From assembly GCA_963777605.1 (NCBI GenBank), contig CAVZRV010000011.1, positions 288,001 through 352,000 of the forward strand: DNA of 64,000 bases, in the 5' to 3' direction. Made by a program: the position numbers and the translations under genes. Below, piece by piece: positions 6,922 to 13,509 of this stretch (positions are counted from its first letter, which is position 1; each line of letters begins with the position of its first letter). Source of the DNA: an uncultured Acidobacteriota bacterium. GTDB taxonomy: Bacteria > Acidobacteriota > UBA6911 > RPQK01 > JAPXNP01. The notes beneath the pieces were generated by a model, which worked only from the letters and a program-made list of their open reading frames with translations, had not been told where the DNA came from and ran no database searches.

Positions 6922-9900
6922 ATGAGTCGATTTTGCGCGGGTGCCTGCCGCCTCCTAATTACCTGCACCCTTCTCATTTCTACGGCTGACGCCCAGCGAG
7001 CCAGCGGAAGTATTTCGGGAACTGTCCTCGATTCCGACGGCCGCCGCGTTCTGGAAGCGGCTGTAACGCTGAACAGCGCGGCAACGGGAAGGGTCTGGCA
7101 CACGCGCGGCAACGAACTGGGAGTTTACCGGTTCGCGGGCCTCGAGCCCGGAACCTACGAGTTGAAGGCCAACTTTCAGGAACTCACTTCCGGAACCATT
7201 ACCGGAGTGACCCTTGACGTCGCCCAGGAGTTGATCCTGGACCTGACTCTAAAGATGGGCCTGACGTCACAGGACGTTTCCGTTTACGCTGACACTCCCG
7301 TTACCGACGTTGGATCGATGACCCTGAGTCGGGTGATCACGGGCCCCGAAGCGACTGAACTACCCTTGAACGGCCGCGACTTGACTCAACTCGCGCTGCT
7401 CGTTCCCGGCGTTCTGGAAAGCCGGGGGAGCACCCGGGACATCAACGTGGGCTTCGGTAAGAAGATCTCGATTTCGGGCTCCCGACCCAACCAAAACCTG
7501 TTCACGATTGACGGCACCGATTCGGGAGACTCGCTCAACAACACCCCGGCTGGAGCCAACGGACAGTTGACCGGGGTAGAGACGATCCGGGAATTCCGGG
7601 TTGCCACCAACACGTTGAGCGCGGAGTACGGCCGAGCAGCCGGGGGAGTAATCAACATCGTTACCCGTTCGGGATCGAATGACCTGAACGGATCGATCTT
7701 CTACTTTCACCGAAATGACAACCTGGATGCCCGCAGCTTCTTCGACACTGCCAAACCGGAGTTCCGAAGGCATCAGTTCGGTGGGTCCGCAGGCTTTCCC
7801 CTGGTCAAAGACCGGACTTTCGTCTTCGGCAGCTACGAGGGTTTGCGAGAATCCAGGGGAGTCACGCAACTGGCTTACGTTCCCGACAAAGAGGTGCTGC
7901 AAGCGGCAGCCGGCGACTCGATCTTTTTTCCGGCTGCCGATCGGAGCGTGAACCTTAGCTCCACAGTCGCCCCCCTCCTGCGACTATACCCGCTACCGAC
8001 CGGGCCAGAAGTCGTTCCGGGTAGCCACATCGCGGAGTACCGGGGAATCCTCGACCGCCGGGCCAACGAGGACTTCGCCAATTTCCGTGTTGATCACGTC
8101 CTGTCTGAATCAGACGCGCTGTTTGGGCGCTACCTCTACTCCGGATCGACCTACGTTCTTCCGGTGCTGTATCCGGACTATCCCAATCTGGCGACCAACG
8201 CACGTCACCTGTTCACTGTTGCCGAAACCCACAGTGGGAGTTCGGGCTCGGTCAACGAGTTTCTGTTGGGATTCAACCGAAGCGCTCCCGAAGAGCAGGT
8301 GCCCCAACCTCCGTCTGATCGAAATATCCCCTTCATAGCCGGGCGCGAACTGGGTTCCCTTCGAGTCACCGCCGGAAGCGGCCTCCCTGCTCTGACCGAG
8401 GTGGGAACCGACCGGACCGACCCCAAGTCGTTCCACAACCAAACTCTCCAAGTGAGCGACAACCTGTCGCTGGTGCGAAGCAACCACACTCTCAAGGTCG
8501 GATTACTCTTCGAGCGCTTCCACTACGACGGACTGTCGGAAAGCCGTACCCGGGGACGCCTCGAGTTTCGCAACCTGATTGACATGCTTGGCGACGAGCC
8601 GCGTCGGATTGAGGGAGCTTCCGCCCGATCCGACTTTGAACGGCGCTTTCGACAGTCCCTTTTCGGGGCTTACCTGCAGGACGACTTCAGGGTGAGCCCG
8701 ACGCTGACCCTGTTCGGCGGAGTTCGTTGGGAATTCGTGACGACGCCTCGGGAAGTCGAGGGGCGTGTTTCCAACTTGACCGACTACCTCGATCCCGAGG
8801 CCGTTCTGGTTGTGGCGGAAGAACGCTATGCCGATCCCCAAGCTGCGCTGCCGCGTGTTTGCTGCCGGGAGCTGTTCGATAACCCAACCCTCGGCAACGT
8901 CTCCCCTAGAGTCGGGTTCGCCTGGGACTTCCTCGGCACTCGCATGACAGTCCTTCGAGGCGGGTTCGGGATCTTCCACGATCAGCCGCTGTTCCATATC
9001 TACCGCAGCCAGGTGTTCCGGTCCCTCCCATTTGTCGAAACGACCTACCTGAATGCCGGAGAGTGGCCCGGGGGTGCCACGGTAGCCTCGTTGCCTCTGG
9101 ATCCCAGCCTCTTTTCGTCACCCTCCGGAGCCCAGGACACCGAGGCGATCCAGTATGGGCTGCGAAGCAGCTATGTGATGCAGTACAACCTCAATCTCCA
9201 GCGTGCACTGGGACGACTCGCGAGCCTCAGCGTCGCCTACGTCGGAAGCCGGGGAGTCAACCTGTTCGGCCGGGCCGACACCAACCTGGCGTTACGAGAG
9301 ACGCTTCCGGACGGTACGATTTACTTTCCGAGCAACGAGCGCCAGAACTCGAATTTTGGCTCGGTAAGGACCCTCTTCCAGGGCATCAACTCATGGTACA
9401 ACTCGCTCCAGGTCCAGTTCGGACGACGATTCGAGCGGGGCATCGGTTTCTGGTCCAGCTACACCTTTTCGCGATGCCTGGACGAAGCCTCAGGGACCGG
9501 GGGCAGGCAGGAACAACAATTCGGCCAGACTCGGCCCCTTGATCCGTTCGATCTTGCCCGCGACAAAGGGCTGTGCGATTACAACGTCCAGCAAAACTTC
9601 GTTCTGAGTCACCTGGTCTCCCTTCCTTTCGGGAATGGACTCAGCGGCATATCCAGGGTCTTACTGGCCGACTGGAACCTGAACGGGATCCTCCACCTGG
9701 CATCGGGGATCCCTTTCACGCCGTCGATCGAAGGCGACCCGGACAATGACGGCAGCGAAGACAATGGGGCTCGGCCCAACCTGGTCGGGGACCCCATGTC
9801 GGGTTCGTGCCCTCTGGGTGGCCAAGTGGGCACGGCGGACTGTTGGTTCAATCCGTCAGCGTTCGCGTTTCCAGGCAAGGGTTTTCGCGGCAACCTCGGC

Positions 9901-10173
9901 CGAAACACCCTGATTGGCCCGGGACTGGCTTCGTACGACATGGCCCTCTCGAAACGACTTCCACTGGCCGGCGAATTTCAGCTGGAGGTTCGGCTGGAAG
10001 CCTTCAACCTCTTCAACCACACTAATCTCAACCCGCCGAGCAACAGCGAGGATGGATCGCAGATCTTTTCGGAAGACGGGACCCTGGATCCGACCGGAGC
10101 CATCATCCGCGCTCGCTCGGGCACCTCGACCGGGCCAAGGGAACTGCAATTCGGCCTCCGCCTCATCTTCTGA
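6922..10173 (+). CDS. TonB-dependent receptor with N-terminal carboxypeptidase-regulatory-like domain (Oar-like)
   Basis: 1083 aa; signal peptide, GSISGTVLD, LPLNGRD, SAEYGRAAGGVINIVTRSGSN, YLQDDFRV, C-terminal QFGLRLIF. Confidence 0.92.
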   Translation: MSRFCAGACRLLITCTLLISTADAQRASGSISGTVLDSDGRRVLEAAVTLNSAATGRVWHTRGNELGVYRFAGLEPGTYELKANFQELTSGTITGVTLDVAQELILDLTLKMGLTSQDVSVYADTPVTDVGSMTLSRVITGPEATELPLNGRDLTQLALLVPGVLESRGSTRDINVGFGKKISISGSRPNQNLFTIDGTDSGDSLNNTPAGANGQLTGVETIREFRVATNTLSAEYGRAAGGVINIVTRSGSNDLNGSIFYFHRNDNLDARSFFDTAKPEFRRHQFGGSAGFPLVKDRTFVFGSYEGLRESRGVTQLAYVPDKEVLQAAAGDSIFFPAADRSVNLSSTVAPLLRLYPLPTGPEVVPGSHIAEYRGILDRRANEDFANFRVDHVLSESDALFGRYLYSGSTYVLPVLYPDYPNLATNARHLFTVAETHSGSSGSVNEFLLGFNRSAPEEQVPQPPSDRNIPFIAGRELGSLRVTAGSGLPALTEVGTDRTDPKSFHNQTLQVSDNLSLVRSNHTLKVGLLFERFHYDGLSESRTRGRLEFRNLIDMLGDEPRRIEGASARSDFERRFRQSLFGAYLQDDFRVSPTLTLFGGVRWEFVTTPREVEGRVSNLTDYLDPEAVLVVAEERYADPQAALPRVCCRELFDNPTLGNVSPRVGFAWDFLGTRMTVLRGGFGIFHDQPLFHIYRSQVFRSLPFVETTYLNAGEWPGGATVASLPLDPSLFSSPSGAQDTEAIQYGLRSSYVMQYNLNLQRALGRLASLSVAYVGSRGVNLFGRADTNLALRETLPDGTIYFPSNERQNSNFGSVRTLFQGINSWYNSLQVQFGRRFERGIGFWSSYTFSRCLDEASGTGGRQEQQFGQTRPLDPFDLARDKGLCDYNVQQNFVLSHLVSLPFGNGLSGISRVLLADWNLNGILHLASGIPFTPSIEGDPDNDGSEDNGARPNLVGDPMSGSCPLGGQVGTADCWFNPSAFAFPGKGFRGNLGRNTLIGPGLASYDMALSKRLPLAGEFQLEVRLEAFNLFNHTNLNPPSNSEDGSQIFSEDGTLDPTGAIIRARSGTSTGPRELQFGLRLIF

Positions 10174-10290
10174 AACTTCAATCTGGATGAGTTGAACGAC
10201 CTGGACGATATGGACGCGTCTGAACGGAGATTCGGGCGAGCGGTAGAACTCAGAAGCCGTGGCTCTCGGCTGGATCCTGGATACCCCGAT

Positions 10291-10316
10291 TTCAGAACGC
10301 GAGTGTCAGCGAGCGC
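10291..10316 (+). repeat. REP-like element, left arm of an inverted pair
   Basis: TTCAGAACGCGAGTGTCAGCGAGCGC is 25/26 identical to the reverse complement of 12267-12292. Confidence 0.75.
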
Positions 10317-10410
10317 GGCTCCGGACGATGGTAAGTCACCGAAGTGCTGCCGGAGGCCGGAACCGCGGGATGGAGTCAAGATCCAGGATTGGCAATGGAT
10401 GAGAGTTCGG

Positions 10411-12262
10411 CTAGGGGTAGGGATAGCGGTTGGTCCGCTACCCCTCCCTCCGAACCCGGCGTCGGGTTCTCCCGGACCGGGCTCTCCAGTTGGTGGTTCA
10501 CCTCGAAGAGGATTGAGTGGCCGAGTCGTAGGCTGCAGTCAGGGAGAACAGCCTGCGCTCGCGGAAATAGGCGTTGGGCCAGCGTTGGTAGTCGGCACCC
10601 CGCGCTCGTCCGCGGAGACCGTGGCGTTTGCGAAGAATGGCTCGGAGCCGTCCGCGCACCCAGATATCGACTTGCTCAAACGTACGGCGGTTACTGTGTT
10701 TGTAATAGCCAAACCAGCCCCGCAGTCGCAGATTCACAAGTCGGATGATCGCGTCCAGACTCCGCCCATTCGCCCGCTTGGTCAGCGGCTTCAGATTGGC
10801 GCGAAGCTTCTGCATGCTCTTCTTCCGAGGATACTTGACCAGCCGCGGCAGTCCGGACCTGCCTGCTTGAAAGTGGTACCCCAGGAAGTCAAACCCGTCC
10901 TCGTGAAGATCCACGATTCGGGTCTTCTCCGGATGCAATTCCAGCCCCACCGCCTCCATCCACTCCGCCAGCAGTCGCCACGCCCGGCGGGCTTCCTGCT
11001 CGCTTCGGCATAGGATCACCAGATCATCGGCATACCGGATCATCACGAAACCGGCTTGCTCCATCCGGTGGTCCAGTGGATTGAGATAGACGTTGGCCAG
11101 TAGTGGACTGATGACCGCCCCTTGCGGACAGCCTTCCTCCGGCGTCCAGTGCCGCAGCGCCTCGAAGATCTCCTGTTTCAGGAAAGCCTCGAGCAACTCC
11201 AGCACGCGTCCATCCGCCACTTGTCCCTGGATCTCCTCCCGAAGCCGGGTGTGGGAGATTCGGTCAAAGTAGCTGCGGATGTCCGCATCGACCACCCAAT
11301 AGTGGCCGCTCTGGATCGTCTGCTGCACCTGCCGTAAGGCATCCTTGCATCCGCGCCCCGGACGAAAACCCAAAACTTCGCACGGCGAACGTTTCCTCAA
11401 AGATCGGTTCCAATACATTGCGTAGTGCCGTCTGCACTACCCGATCCCGCACCGTCGGAATCCCCAGCGGCCGCTTCTCGCGGCTGCCCGGTTTGTCGAT
11501 ATAGCTTCGACGGATTCCCTGCGGGCGGTAGGTCCCGTTCTTGAGGCTGTCGTGCAGCCGTTCCAGTTCCTCGTCCAGGCGCTTGTCGAACTGCTCGACC
11601 GTGACATGGTCCACTCCCGCCGCTCCCCGGTTGGCCTTCACTTTCGCAAAGGCCGCCCCCAAGTTGCGTCGACCGTAGACCTTGTCCATCAGGCTGAACC
11701 AGGCTCCTCCTTTCACTCCCGTTTCCAGGGCCTTCAACATCCGATCCGTCCATACGCTGCGTTCCGCCCAGTCCCACCGGGACCCGGCTTCTCCGACTTG
11801 TTTAGTCTCAGACACTGCCGTCGGTTGCTCTTCGCTGCCCATGTCGTCTCGTCTCCACCTTCCTGTCCCCCTTCGCTCCAGTCCCATTACAGGACCTTCA
11901 TCACTACTATGAGGACTCGGACTCCTGTCCGACCCTCTCCCGGGTGGGCAGGTCTCCCCACGCTCGCGTCGCATTGCCTTCTGTCGCCGTTCCGTCTCCA
12001 ACCACGCCATGTCCCGCCCTTCTCTCTTTGACAGCTACCCATATAGAGGAAGAACCGTCCTTTCGGATCAGGCTTCGCCATTCCACTGCAGGCTCGCCCA
12101 GACACATCGCCGAATCGAGTTCCTCGCGTACGGACCGGTGACTCACCTCCTGTGCCCCCCACCCCGTCTCACGACGGCGCAGTAACATTCGGTTACAGGC
12201 CCGGAGAGCTCTGGCCTGGGAGGGACTTTCACCCTCCTGACAATGCGCGCCTGTGGGCGCGC
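10411..12262 (-). mobile_element. Group II intron (IIB-like), 1852 nt, RT-encoding
   Basis: 5' end GCGCGCCC...GGGTGAAAGTCCC. EBS1 GGTAGC (12039-12034) pairs with the exon end GCTACT. D3 lies near 11870-11916. D5 is GAGCCCGGT...ACGCCGGGTTC. D6 has the bulged A 8 nt from the 3' end (...CCCTACCCCTAG). Confidence 0.9.
10498..11842 (-). CDS. ltrA: Group II intron reverse transcriptase/maturase, no En domain; +1 frameshift at about 11365-11368
   Basis: VKANRGAAGVD, KRPLGIPTVRDR, (S)FGF/RPGR, DADIRSYFD, PQGAVISPLLAN, RYADD, GFDFLG, X domain LRGWFGY. Removing one T from TTTT restores SFGFRPGRGC. Confidence 0.9.
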
Positions 12263-12266
12263 AGTA

Positions 12267-12292
12267 GCGCTCGCTCACACTCGCGTTCTGAA
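12267..12292 (-). repeat. REP-like element, right arm, abutting the intron 5' splice site
   Basis: Minus strand TTCAGAACGCGAGTGTGAGCGAGCGC; ends 4 nt from the intron start. Confidence 0.75.
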
Positions 12293-12405
12293 CACCGGCC
12301 GAGTGCCAGGTCCGGTCTCCGCCCGGCCCAGTTTCACTCTCTGAAGATCCGTACAAGGGCGCGGGGGCGGGGCTGACCGCAGCGAAGAGCGGACCATCTC
12401 CCGAG

Positions 12406-13509
12406 TCACCTCAGTTCGAGGTGGTTTGCCGGCGAATCACGAGGCGTCTGGGTCGATTTCGAGCCAGGTTCATCGCTTACGGGTTGCGCCAGCCCGGCTT
12501 TGACCAGGTCAAACAGGTAGATCCCGTCTCCAGTTCCCGGAGGGGAGTCGGCGCGCGATTCCTGGAACGCGAACATCAAACCGTCATCTCGCACGACCGG
12601 GTTGGACGCCCGAAAACCGGGCACGTCGGAGAAATGGGTCAACCGGACGAGGTCCCGTCCGGTCCCGTCCAGCTTCAGACGATAAATGTCGATGTAGGCG
12701 GTTCCCATCGGGTGGTGGCGATCACTTTCAACCAGCGTGTACTCGCCGTCGGGAAAGACCCCTTCCGGCTCGTCGTACTGATTCGGAGCCTTGGAGTAGT
12801 TGATGAGCTTGTCCGACTCCAGGTCGCAGCCCATAACCTCCGCCGTGAAGACTCCGCTGTCGGTCATCCCGTACTGGGACCAGATCAACTCCCTGTCATC
12901 CGGCGGTCGAAAACTCTGCGGTTCGACCATTCCCTCATACTGGATCCCGTCAACCACCACGTCGCGGTTGTCGACGACCTGCTTCCTATGCAACAAGACG
13001 GGATCGCCGTTCCGATAGACAATGTCCCCAACCCAGATTTTCTCCTGCTTTGCCGTCCAGGCCACCTTGAGTTGCTGACGGGAAACCGCGCACCCTTCGG
13101 CAACCAGCACATCCTTGAACACTTTCGGAGGTCTTGTCAGGCTCTTGTCGAGGATTTGCAGGTAGGTCTCCTGACGGCTCGGTCCCCCGGTCAGCAAGTA
13201 GTCACCGTTGGACAGGTAGAGGGCCCGGTAATACCCCCAACCCTCCGGGCGCTGGTAATGAAGCGAGATCGGCTTGGTCTGGCGGGTTCGGATGTCGATT
13301 TCAAATACGTCTCCGCCTGCCTCGGTCAGGTAGAGGATCTTAGTGCCGTCCAGGGACCAGTCGGGGCGTTCTCCAAAATCGGTCAGTCGCGTGATGTATT
13401 GGGGCAACTTGCTCGGTGGAAAGGAAGAAGCATGAGCCAAGGTCGAAGTCAGCCCGCTCAACAGCAGAACAAGGAATCCCCGAATCAGGATGCGACAAAC
13501 TGTCTTCAT
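12406..13509 (-). CDS. Exported TolB-like beta-propeller protein
   Basis: 367 aa; signal peptide; PD40-like repeats (RLTDFGERPDWSLDG, EPEGVFPDG, RLTHF...ASNPVVRDDG). Confidence 0.7.
   Translation of the reverse strand: MKTVCRILIRGFLVLLLSGLTSTLAHASSFPPSKLPQYITRLTDFGERPDWSLDGTKILYLTEAGGDVFEIDIRTRQTKPISLHYQRPEGWGYYRALYLSNGDYLLTGGPSRQETYLQILDKSLTRPPKVFKDVLVAEGCAVSRQQLKVAWTAKQEKIWVGDIVYRNGDPVLLHRKQVVDNRDVVVDGIQYEGMVEPQSFRPPDDRELIWSQYGMTDSGVFTAEVMGCDLESDKLINYSKAPNQYDEPEGVFPDGEYTLVESDRHHPMGTAYIDIYRLKLDGTGRDLVRLTHFSDVPGFRASNPVVRDDGLMFAFQESRADSPPGTGDGIYLFDLVKAGLAQPVSDEPGSKSTQTPRDSPANHLELR

Follow-up and report, generated by a model that had tools for sequence, protein, structure and literature searches.

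Group II intron inside an inverted-repeat doublet

The window analyzed here is a 64-kb stretch of DNA (C11:288001-352000 of its source genome, assembly G000, which has 53 contigs and 6.73 Mb), and the element of interest is a group II intron that is bracketed by two short inverted arms between convergent genes. The gene on one side (6922 to 10173, forward strand) encodes an outer-membrane beta-barrel protein resembling TonB-dependent receptors (PF25183, E value of 4.9e-176; CarboxypepD_reg). The convergent gene (12406 to 13509, reverse strand), which shares the orientation of the intron and lies upstream of it, encodes a protein of 367 amino acids (aa) with no Pfam family. Between them, positions 10291 to 10323 and 12260 to 12292 form an inverted repeat of 33 nucleotides (nt) with 88% complementarity, and its 26-nt cores, the left arm (10291 to 10316, forward strand) and the right arm (12267 to 12292, reverse strand), differ at one position. 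The intron, designated copy A, occupies 10411 to 12262 on the reverse strand (1852 nt, 5'-GCGCG...CCCCUAG-3'), and in its own sense the right arm is directly on its 5' side. An earlier reading made without database searches, the sequence-only reading, had described an intron bracketed by these arms between convergent genes, with the splice site 4 nt from the right arm and a 98-nt spacer remaining after excision. Each of these statements was borne out, the 5' splice site being 4 nt (TACT) past the right arm and the spacer consisting of 10317 to 10410 (94 nt) and 12263 to 12266 (4 nt).

The ends of the intron were fixed by the point where its four genomic copies cease to match, by natural empty sites, by relatives in other genomes, and by covariation between exon-binding site 1 (EBS1) and intron-binding site 1 (IBS1). 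The 5' exon of copy A ends in GCGAGCGC-TACT and the 3' exon begins with CCGAACTC; the matching place in an empty doublet on contig C29 reads GCGCTACT-CCCGACTC, in agreement with the joined exons (GCGCTACT|CC...). Domains V and VI were found at 10411 to 10486 on the reverse strand with Rfam model RF00029 (35.9 bits, E value of 8.1e-05), under its gathering score of 40. Model RF02003 reached 20 bits in the window against a gathering score of 49, and the match to domains D1 to D4 was weak; at gathering thresholds, Rfam gave no match anywhere in the 64-kb window. The termini are GCGCG...UAG, where the group II consensus is GUGYG...AY, and we regard them as a lineage variant that gives no ground to exclude group II identity.

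The intron carries a gene for a reverse transcriptase (RT)/maturase at 10498 to 12010 on the reverse strand, which the list of open reading frames (ORFs) and the alignment of the four copies show to be split in copy A into ORFs at 11264 to 12010 and 10498 to 11418. From the lengths, the RNA outside the ORF amounts to about 340 to 500 nt. The intact version of the protein from copy C, P0001, was used in domain and homologue searches. It contains the domains RVT_1 (E value of 1.7e-42) and GIIM (3e-14) and no nuclease domain, and scored 393 bits with TIGR04416 (cut-off, 300). Its nearest solved structures were IIC reverse transcriptases (6ar1, 3.2e-65, and 7uim, 3.1e-60, then 5hhj and 5hhl). The next two group II maturases behind them were 6me0 and LtrA (5g2x), which we take to be of classes IIB and IIA. 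The assignment to group II and to class IIC follows from the two domains, the TIGR04416 score and the IIC reverse transcriptases as nearest solved matches; judged by its sequence, the protein is of the class C type without an endonuclease domain.

Four copies of the intron are present in G000, and they are 99.1 to 99.6% alike, with 18 of 1853 alignment columns variable. Copies B (C11:268681-270531) and C (C23:23314-25164) each have an open frame of 511 codons, and copy D (C30:148832-150679) has a frameshift of its own. Copy A alone has an extra G at window position 11371, which breaks the RT/maturase frame (+1 frameshift), and a substitution at 10464 in the upper stem of domain V. Having lost its frame, copy A could move or splice only with protein supplied by the intact copies B or C, as far as the sequences indicate. 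Identity among the copies stops exactly at the intron ends.

Contigs from four sequencing runs covered only pieces of the intron, and none of them spanned either junction or showed an empty site. One soil-metagenome contig (run X3, record 22) is about 94% like the 5' part of the intron (window 11870 to 12263, 25 differing letters over 394 nt) and continues past the intron 5' end into a 7-base-pair (bp) hairpin with a 3-nt loop and then 5 nt. It is suggestive of a further close relative that occupies a stem-loop site.

A dispersed family of extragenic doublets

The arms belong to a multicopy repeat, as the sequence-only reading had supposed. The 23-nt arm pattern used earlier had two matches in the window with 0 mismatches and none in 100 shuffles, and across the genome it gave 12 ungapped matches with at most 3 mismatches, the reversed control giving 0. 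An arm profile was then built from 14 arms, and a permissive nhmmer search of the genome with it returned 91 rows, of which 38 are full-length arms. These include 17 convergent pairs, here called doublets, that of the window among them, with spacers of 80 to 179 nt and mostly of 99 to 103 nt. An 18th pair with a gap of 981 nt was set aside as spurious. An ORF of at least 150 aa covered half or more of only 1 of 16 doublets, compared with 273 of 300 random windows, indicating that the doublets are extragenic. The doublet interior retained at 10317 to 10410, 94 of the 98 spacer nt, aligns with empty doublets at C29:122397-122583, C28:118859-119042 and C8:184124-184307. The predicted fold of an empty doublet is a long hairpin whose 26-bp stem is perfect (z = -5.3 as DNA and -6.0 as RNA). 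Outside G000 there was a single doublet match, in 1 of the 40 related genomes searched, and the arm family is thus essentially private to the G000 genome.

The 38 arms have TTCAG-ACGCGAG and GCGAGCGC as conserved parts, separated by a segment that differs in both sequence and length from arm to arm. The conserved parts include both proposed stem halves, CGCGAG and GCGAGCG, a pattern that fits the small tandem G-A hairpin into which each arm had been predicted to fold.

EBS1-IBS1 pairing and the sites of the four copies

EBS1 was located by aligning the first 460 nt of five introns, which share a conserved hairpin of the form GGCGAGCC-loop-GGCGAAGCC. In copy A, EBS1 (AGUGG; 12083 to 12087, reverse strand) lies in the loop of GCC-UGCAGUGGAAU-GGC. 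It pairs at five of five positions, one of them as G-U, with IBS1 (CUACU; 12263 to 12267, reverse strand), which is composed of the last base of the right arm and TACT. The earlier statement that IBS1 overlaps the arm end is therefore correct, its first C being the last arm base. The loop covaries with the last five bases of the 5' exon across four intron lineages. In G000, where EBS1 is AGUGG, the 5' exons end in CUACU (copy A), CUGCU (copy C), CCAUU (copy B) and CCAAU (copy D). In genomes G032, G007 and G041, described below, EBS1 is GAGUG, GAACG and UGACC, and the 5' exons end in CACUC, in CGUUC, and in GGUCA or, in the second G041 copy, GGCCA, respectively. The first base of the 3' exon, presumed to be IBS3 (position 10410, reverse strand), is C in all four G000 copies and in all relatives examined. 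The covariation and this invariant C fix the intron boundaries and place the start of IBS1 at the last arm base.

Copy C, like copy A, is inserted 4 nt past an arm (GCGAGCGC-TGCT|). Its 3' flank, compared with an empty doublet on contig C27, is the left-arm side of the doublet interior, and that of copy A is the right-arm side. Because the 3' flanks match opposite sides of the interior, the flanking sequences mark copies A and C as independent insertions, one on each strand of a symmetric doublet. Five of the 38 arms pair fully (5/5) with EBS1, and two of these five are occupied (copies A and C), compared with none of the other 33. At the three compatible arms that are empty, the +1 base is C at C29:122532 and G at the other two. 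The sequence rule C[CT][AG][CT]T+C is fitted by 36,869 sites in the genome. It is therefore very unlikely that two of four copies came to lie at arm sites by chance; a rough calculation, which ignores survivorship, puts the probability near 4e-8 if 3 sites are eligible and near 6e-6 if all 38 are.

The other two copies are elsewhere, and the expectation that intron copies sit at the repeat thus held for copy C, in another doublet, but not for copies B and D. Copy B lies in unique flanking DNA and is preceded by a 4-bp hairpin. Copy D is preceded by a hairpin of 6 to 9 bp and adjoins the left end of an insertion sequence 200 (IS200)-like element; 38 nt separate it from a 125-nt segment which at other loci supplies the left end and start codon of IS200-like genes. 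A site homologous to that of copy D (C35:35614-35653) carries this hairpin as well; CCACT|C comes next, matching EBS1 perfectly, and the site is empty. Neither the filled locus nor one empty locus has a terminator-like site where the intron inserts, and no T-run follows the arm.

Related introns follow dispersed hairpin repeats of their own genomes

A search with P0001 of 41 genomes (G000 and 40 relatives) gave matches in 10 at E values of at most 1e-60, the close relatives being in G032 (70% identity) and G007 (54%). Two more copies (55 to 56%) came from a pattern scan of reference genomes, in G041, a metagenome-assembled genome labelled Planctomycetota. Full-length related copies number one in G032, three in G007 and two in G041. 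All six lie 3 to 5 nt past a strong hairpin that is in each case a dispersed repeat of its own genome, a result in favour of the sequence-only reading, which had proposed to examine the 5' flanks of relatives. The hairpins of one G007 site and the two G041 sites have z values of -4.25, -2.04 and -1.68. The G007 motif has 26 copies at up to 2 mismatches. At up to 3 mismatches the G032 motif has 46 copies, and the two G041 families have 49 (family 1) and 175 (family 2). Reversed-pattern controls gave 0 for the G007, G032 and G041 family 2 motifs, and 0 and 1 for G041 family 1.

Empty repeat copies read hairpin-GTTC|CACACAGGG in G007 and hairpin-ACTC|CAAAG in G032, so that EBS1 matches the repeat consensus in both; in G041, EBS1 likewise fits the tail of the 175-copy consensus. 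The G032 and G041 repeats often occur as inverted pairs, about 72 and 116 nt from start to start, with their tails pointing outward. The intron accordingly lands outside the pair in these genomes and inside the doublet in G000.

Two further observations concern these relatives. At locus L056 (G032:C327:4620-4800), the initial 9 nt of the intron come directly after a repeat copy, and the sequence beyond them is unrelated; this is suggestive of an intron that was truncated or deleted at a further copy of the G032 repeat. The termini GCGCG...UAG are common to the G000 and G032 introns, and the G007 and G041 relatives have GUGCG...UAU; the second and the last base of the intron thus differ jointly between the two pairs of genomes, which may be a single event.

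A Y1-transposase-like gene between two doublets

A linked gene for a REP-associated tyrosine transposase (RAYT), REP denoting repetitive extragenic palindromic sequence, had been proposed as something to search for. On contig C23, ORF P0002 begins about 70 nt from the arm that bears copy C and has arms on either side (C23:22730-22754 and C23:23285-23309). It is a truncated Y1/IS200-like (RAYT-like) gene flanked by two doublets. Its residues 12 to 125 are 37% identical over 114 aa to P0003 (E value of 1.9e-18), and its C-terminal part is the translation of a degenerate doublet. It is without the C-terminal ~60 aa that include the conserved Tyr, and direct family scans of P0002 gave no match. 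The assignment rests instead on P0003, a protein of 185 aa encoded by two genes on contig C28. Alone, P0003 stayed under threshold with the Y1_Tnp, IS200 and REP-tyrosine-transposase models (E values of about 0.01 to 0.03). Its family has 1844 representatives at E values of at most 0.001 in a full HMMER scan, and 53 of 60 aligned members match PF01797 (best, 1.3e-12). The family profile aligned with IS200-type structures (2f4f, E value of 0.006; 2ec2, 0.03), including the HUH motif, and H101, H103 and Y161 are nearly invariant in the family alignment.

By its sequence relationships, then, P0002 is best described as a divergent Y1 gene that was truncated before the Tyr motif and lies between two doublets. 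A candidate for the linked gene therefore exists, but its Tyr region is gone and it has no family match of its own. The gene and its doublets have the arrangement expected of a decayed RAYT with REPINs (REP doublets forming hairpins), and mobilisation of the doublets by such a transposase is putative.

Both intact P0003 genes (C28:137500-142000) lie in arrays of a different repeat of 225 to 268 bp, whose 45-nt core includes a hairpin and is 98 to 100% conserved. This repeat has 11 copies within 4.5 kb and gave 24 blastn rows across the genome.

Proposed targeting of the doublets and alternative explanations

We propose, with a probability of roughly 0.75, that a group IIC intron without an endonuclease entered a REPIN-like doublet by retrohoming, and that this repeat family is a preferred landing site and not the sole one. 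The doublet would be two inverted 26-nt REP-like arms about 100 nt apart that can fold into a long hairpin. The target would be read by five base pairs between EBS1 (AGUGG) and CUACU, starting at the last arm base, together with the first 3' exon base C. A DNA stem ending 3 to 5 nt before the insertion point is presumably required too, as in other IIC introns. This stem may be either the small tandem G-A hairpin of the arm itself or the 26-bp stem between the arms; the inter-arm stem ends at the right distance from the insertion point, and either one would give a duplex that ends exactly at the first IBS1 base, which is also the case in the relatives. Since the doublet is symmetric, each arm would offer a site on its own strand, the right arm having received copy A and the left arm copy C. 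Entry would probably be by reverse splicing into single-stranded DNA, at a site that we suppose to be neutral, and the insertion, by splitting the doublet, should abolish the long hairpin. The observations that carry this reading are the anatomy and boundaries of the intron, the repeat family, the second independent insertion, the covariation of EBS1 and the same habit among the relatives. We infer, in addition, that the intron recognizes a hairpin.

Several points weigh against it. The Rfam scores of the intron are under the gathering thresholds, and its 5' end is GCGCG where GUGCG is usual. A single arm folds as DNA at -2.2 kcal/mol in a nearest-neighbour calculation (z = +1.42), which is no better than shuffles, and the local hairpins in the 67-nt 5' flanks of copies A and C have z values of -0.02 and +1.38. 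The self-folding of each arm that the sequence-only reading had put forward is thus supported by the conserved stem halves but not by the folding energy. Arms within a doublet are not significantly closer to each other than arms of different doublets (2.7 versus 3.28 differences); because 130 of 2000 permutations reach the observed value, we make no claim of selected arm-arm pairing. The family, with 38 arms, is small beside classic REP families and falls short of the hundreds of copies typical of REP sequences. Only 5 of the 38 arms match EBS1 fully, the fully compatible arm at C29:122532 stands empty, copies B and D are outside the arm repeat, and the partner arm of copy C is now degraded. 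Moreover, which copies are retained depends on whether the site tolerates them and not on targeting alone. The earlier idea of a REP family serving as a landing site through hairpin recognition combined with EBS1 is thus supported in part: most of the checks proposed with it gave favourable results, but its hairpin component stays hypothetical and most arms do not match EBS1 fully.

One alternative explanation is that the intron shows generic IIC behaviour plus survivorship, inserting past any small DNA stem that a short IBS1 match follows and persisting in extragenic repeats that are merely harmless, with no family-specific relation. It would account for the half of the copies that lie outside the family after small ordinary hairpins, and for recognition that spans only 5+1 nt. 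It would also be in keeping with class C introns leaning more on structure than on sequence, as stated in part of PMC7306698, and with the ~94%-like soil-metagenome contig, which ends after an unrelated 7-bp hairpin. We nevertheless consider it unlikely. With 36,869 sites fitting the rule, two insertions fell at the same offset of a family with five fully pairing arms, and six of six copies in relatives are at dispersed repeats, EBS1 matching the repeat tails in G007, in G032 and in the 175-copy family of G041. If the doublet were instead a terminator or regulatory RNA hairpin between the convergent genes, the intron would simply obey the classical after-terminator rule. Such a role would suit the position of the doublet and its long stable hairpin as RNA, and terminators are the best-known IIC targets in the parts of PMC4424553 and PMC7161350 that describe them. 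This is quite improbable, however, as there is neither a T-run after the arm nor a terminator-like site at the filled or empty insertion point, and the intron is inside the long hairpin, not after it. The doublets moreover form a conserved multicopy family with fixed spacing, two of which flank a Y1-transposase-like pseudogene.

The arms could also have travelled with the intron, either because copies A and C stem from one duplicated intron-bearing segment or because arms and intron form a composite mobile unit. The ~26 nt of 5' flank common to the two copies are what this would predict, but we give the idea very little credence, for the 3' flank is a different side of the doublet interior in each of them, no arms accompany copies B and D, at least three natural empty doublets exist, and identity between copies ends exactly at the intron ends. 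Both forms of it are contradicted by the opposite 3' flanks, the empty doublets and the armless copies. Beyond preferential landing in the doublets, this IIC clade might be a specialised parasite of REP/REPIN populations whose EBS1 has tracked the tail of each host's dispersed hairpin repeat; we advance this broader claim tentatively, as a little short of an even chance. If true, it would describe a retroelement that exploits the non-autonomous elements of a DNA transposase, for which the repeats would be renewable harmless sites and which would break the hairpins that it enters.

Relation to known targets of group II introns and to REP sequences

According to the parts of PMC4424553, PMC7306698 and PMC7161350 that deal with IIC introns, these have no endonuclease domain, a stem-loop and a short IBS1 replace long pairings, insertion occurs at terminator or attC motifs, and primers come from the replication fork. 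Three target types of bacterial group II introns are distinguished in PMC4424553, namely, homing sites, terminator motifs and attC. The G000 intron is like the terminator-type introns in its apparently compact RNA, endonuclease-less RT/maturase, short EBS1-IBS1 pairing and one-base IBS3, and its relatives insert, as these do, 3 to 5 nt past a DNA stem-loop. We take the terminator type to include B.h.I1, GsI-IIC and Ta.it.I1. The G000 lineage differs from this type in that the stems are genome-specific dispersed repeats rather than gene-specific terminators and have no T-run, and in that the G000 insertion follows a very weak local hairpin and lies within a long inverted-repeat doublet. With IIC-attC introns of the S.ma.I2 type, as portrayed in part of PMC4424553, it shares a target that is a multicopy imperfect inverted repeat folding as single-stranded DNA. 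Unlike that target, the G000 arms showed no attC core-site consensus, as judged by eye only. An attC intron is generally found at the 3' edge of the hairpin as a whole; the G000 intron is just inside the 5' arm.

Insertion in REP sequences is a property of the mobile elements treated by Tobes and Pareja in 2006 (PMC1525189), and a table in that paper lists a group II intron of Pseudomonas putida KT2440 with two of nine copies associated with REPs, which is a precedent for the G000 intron. The passage with the table gives the count alone, with no targeting rule, EBS1 match or lineage-wide pattern. Apart from this row, a literature search of incomplete coverage found no described rule or lineage-wide habit of group II introns at REP or REPIN sequences. 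As far as the relevant parts of Bertels and Rainey 2011 (PMC3116915) and PMC3337134 describe the REPIN-RAYT system, the G000 doublets are like it in consisting of inverted REP-like units with fixed spacing and a hairpin, and in being extragenic, genome-specific and found on either side of a Y1 (IS200-like) transposase-type gene. They are unlike it in that there are only 38 arms and the associated P0002 is truncated and from a divergent Y1 family.

Our reading is that the G000 lineage applies the IIC stem-loop targeting rule to REP-type hairpins, an association that had been glimpsed before in KT2440. Dispersed REP/REPIN hairpins would then be a fourth habitual target or a distinct subtype of stem-loop targeting. 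Such targeting would explain how an intron whose base pairing specifies just 5+1 nt can find many harmless sites, and would connect two unrelated kinds of selfish DNA. The covariation of EBS1 supplies a simple, testable rule that could predict IIC landing sites in newly sequenced genomes.

A larger mosaic repeat around the doublet

The doublet of the window is embedded between two modules of a larger mosaic repeat, M1 (10170 to 10280, forward strand; 69 blastn rows in the genome) and M4 (12320 to 12378, forward strand; 88 blastn rows). The commonest form of this repeat consists of M1, about 248 bp of small GC-rich hairpins, and M4, about 415 bp in total, and it often occurs in head-to-tail arrays, for example at C24:4100-12500 and C8:329300-336500. 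The stop codon of the receptor gene (10171 to 10173) falls on the first bases of M1, which starts at 10170, so that the repeat abuts the coding sequence exactly.

At C8:331900-335600 there are tandem units in which M4 recurs every 1652 bp, with 1601 bp between M4 copies, and each unit encodes an IS110-family transposase (PF01548, E value of 1.1e-20; PF02371, 6.3e-10). These units represent a second kind of mobile element at the M1/M4 mosaic repeat. At C7:1121700-1124000, a gene for a 150-aa transposase of the IS200/IS605 family (NF033573, 58.4 bits against a cut-off of 55) has hairpin modules of the 415-bp family on both sides, including 45-nt inverted pairs 103 nt apart, and its product may be the transposase of this larger family.

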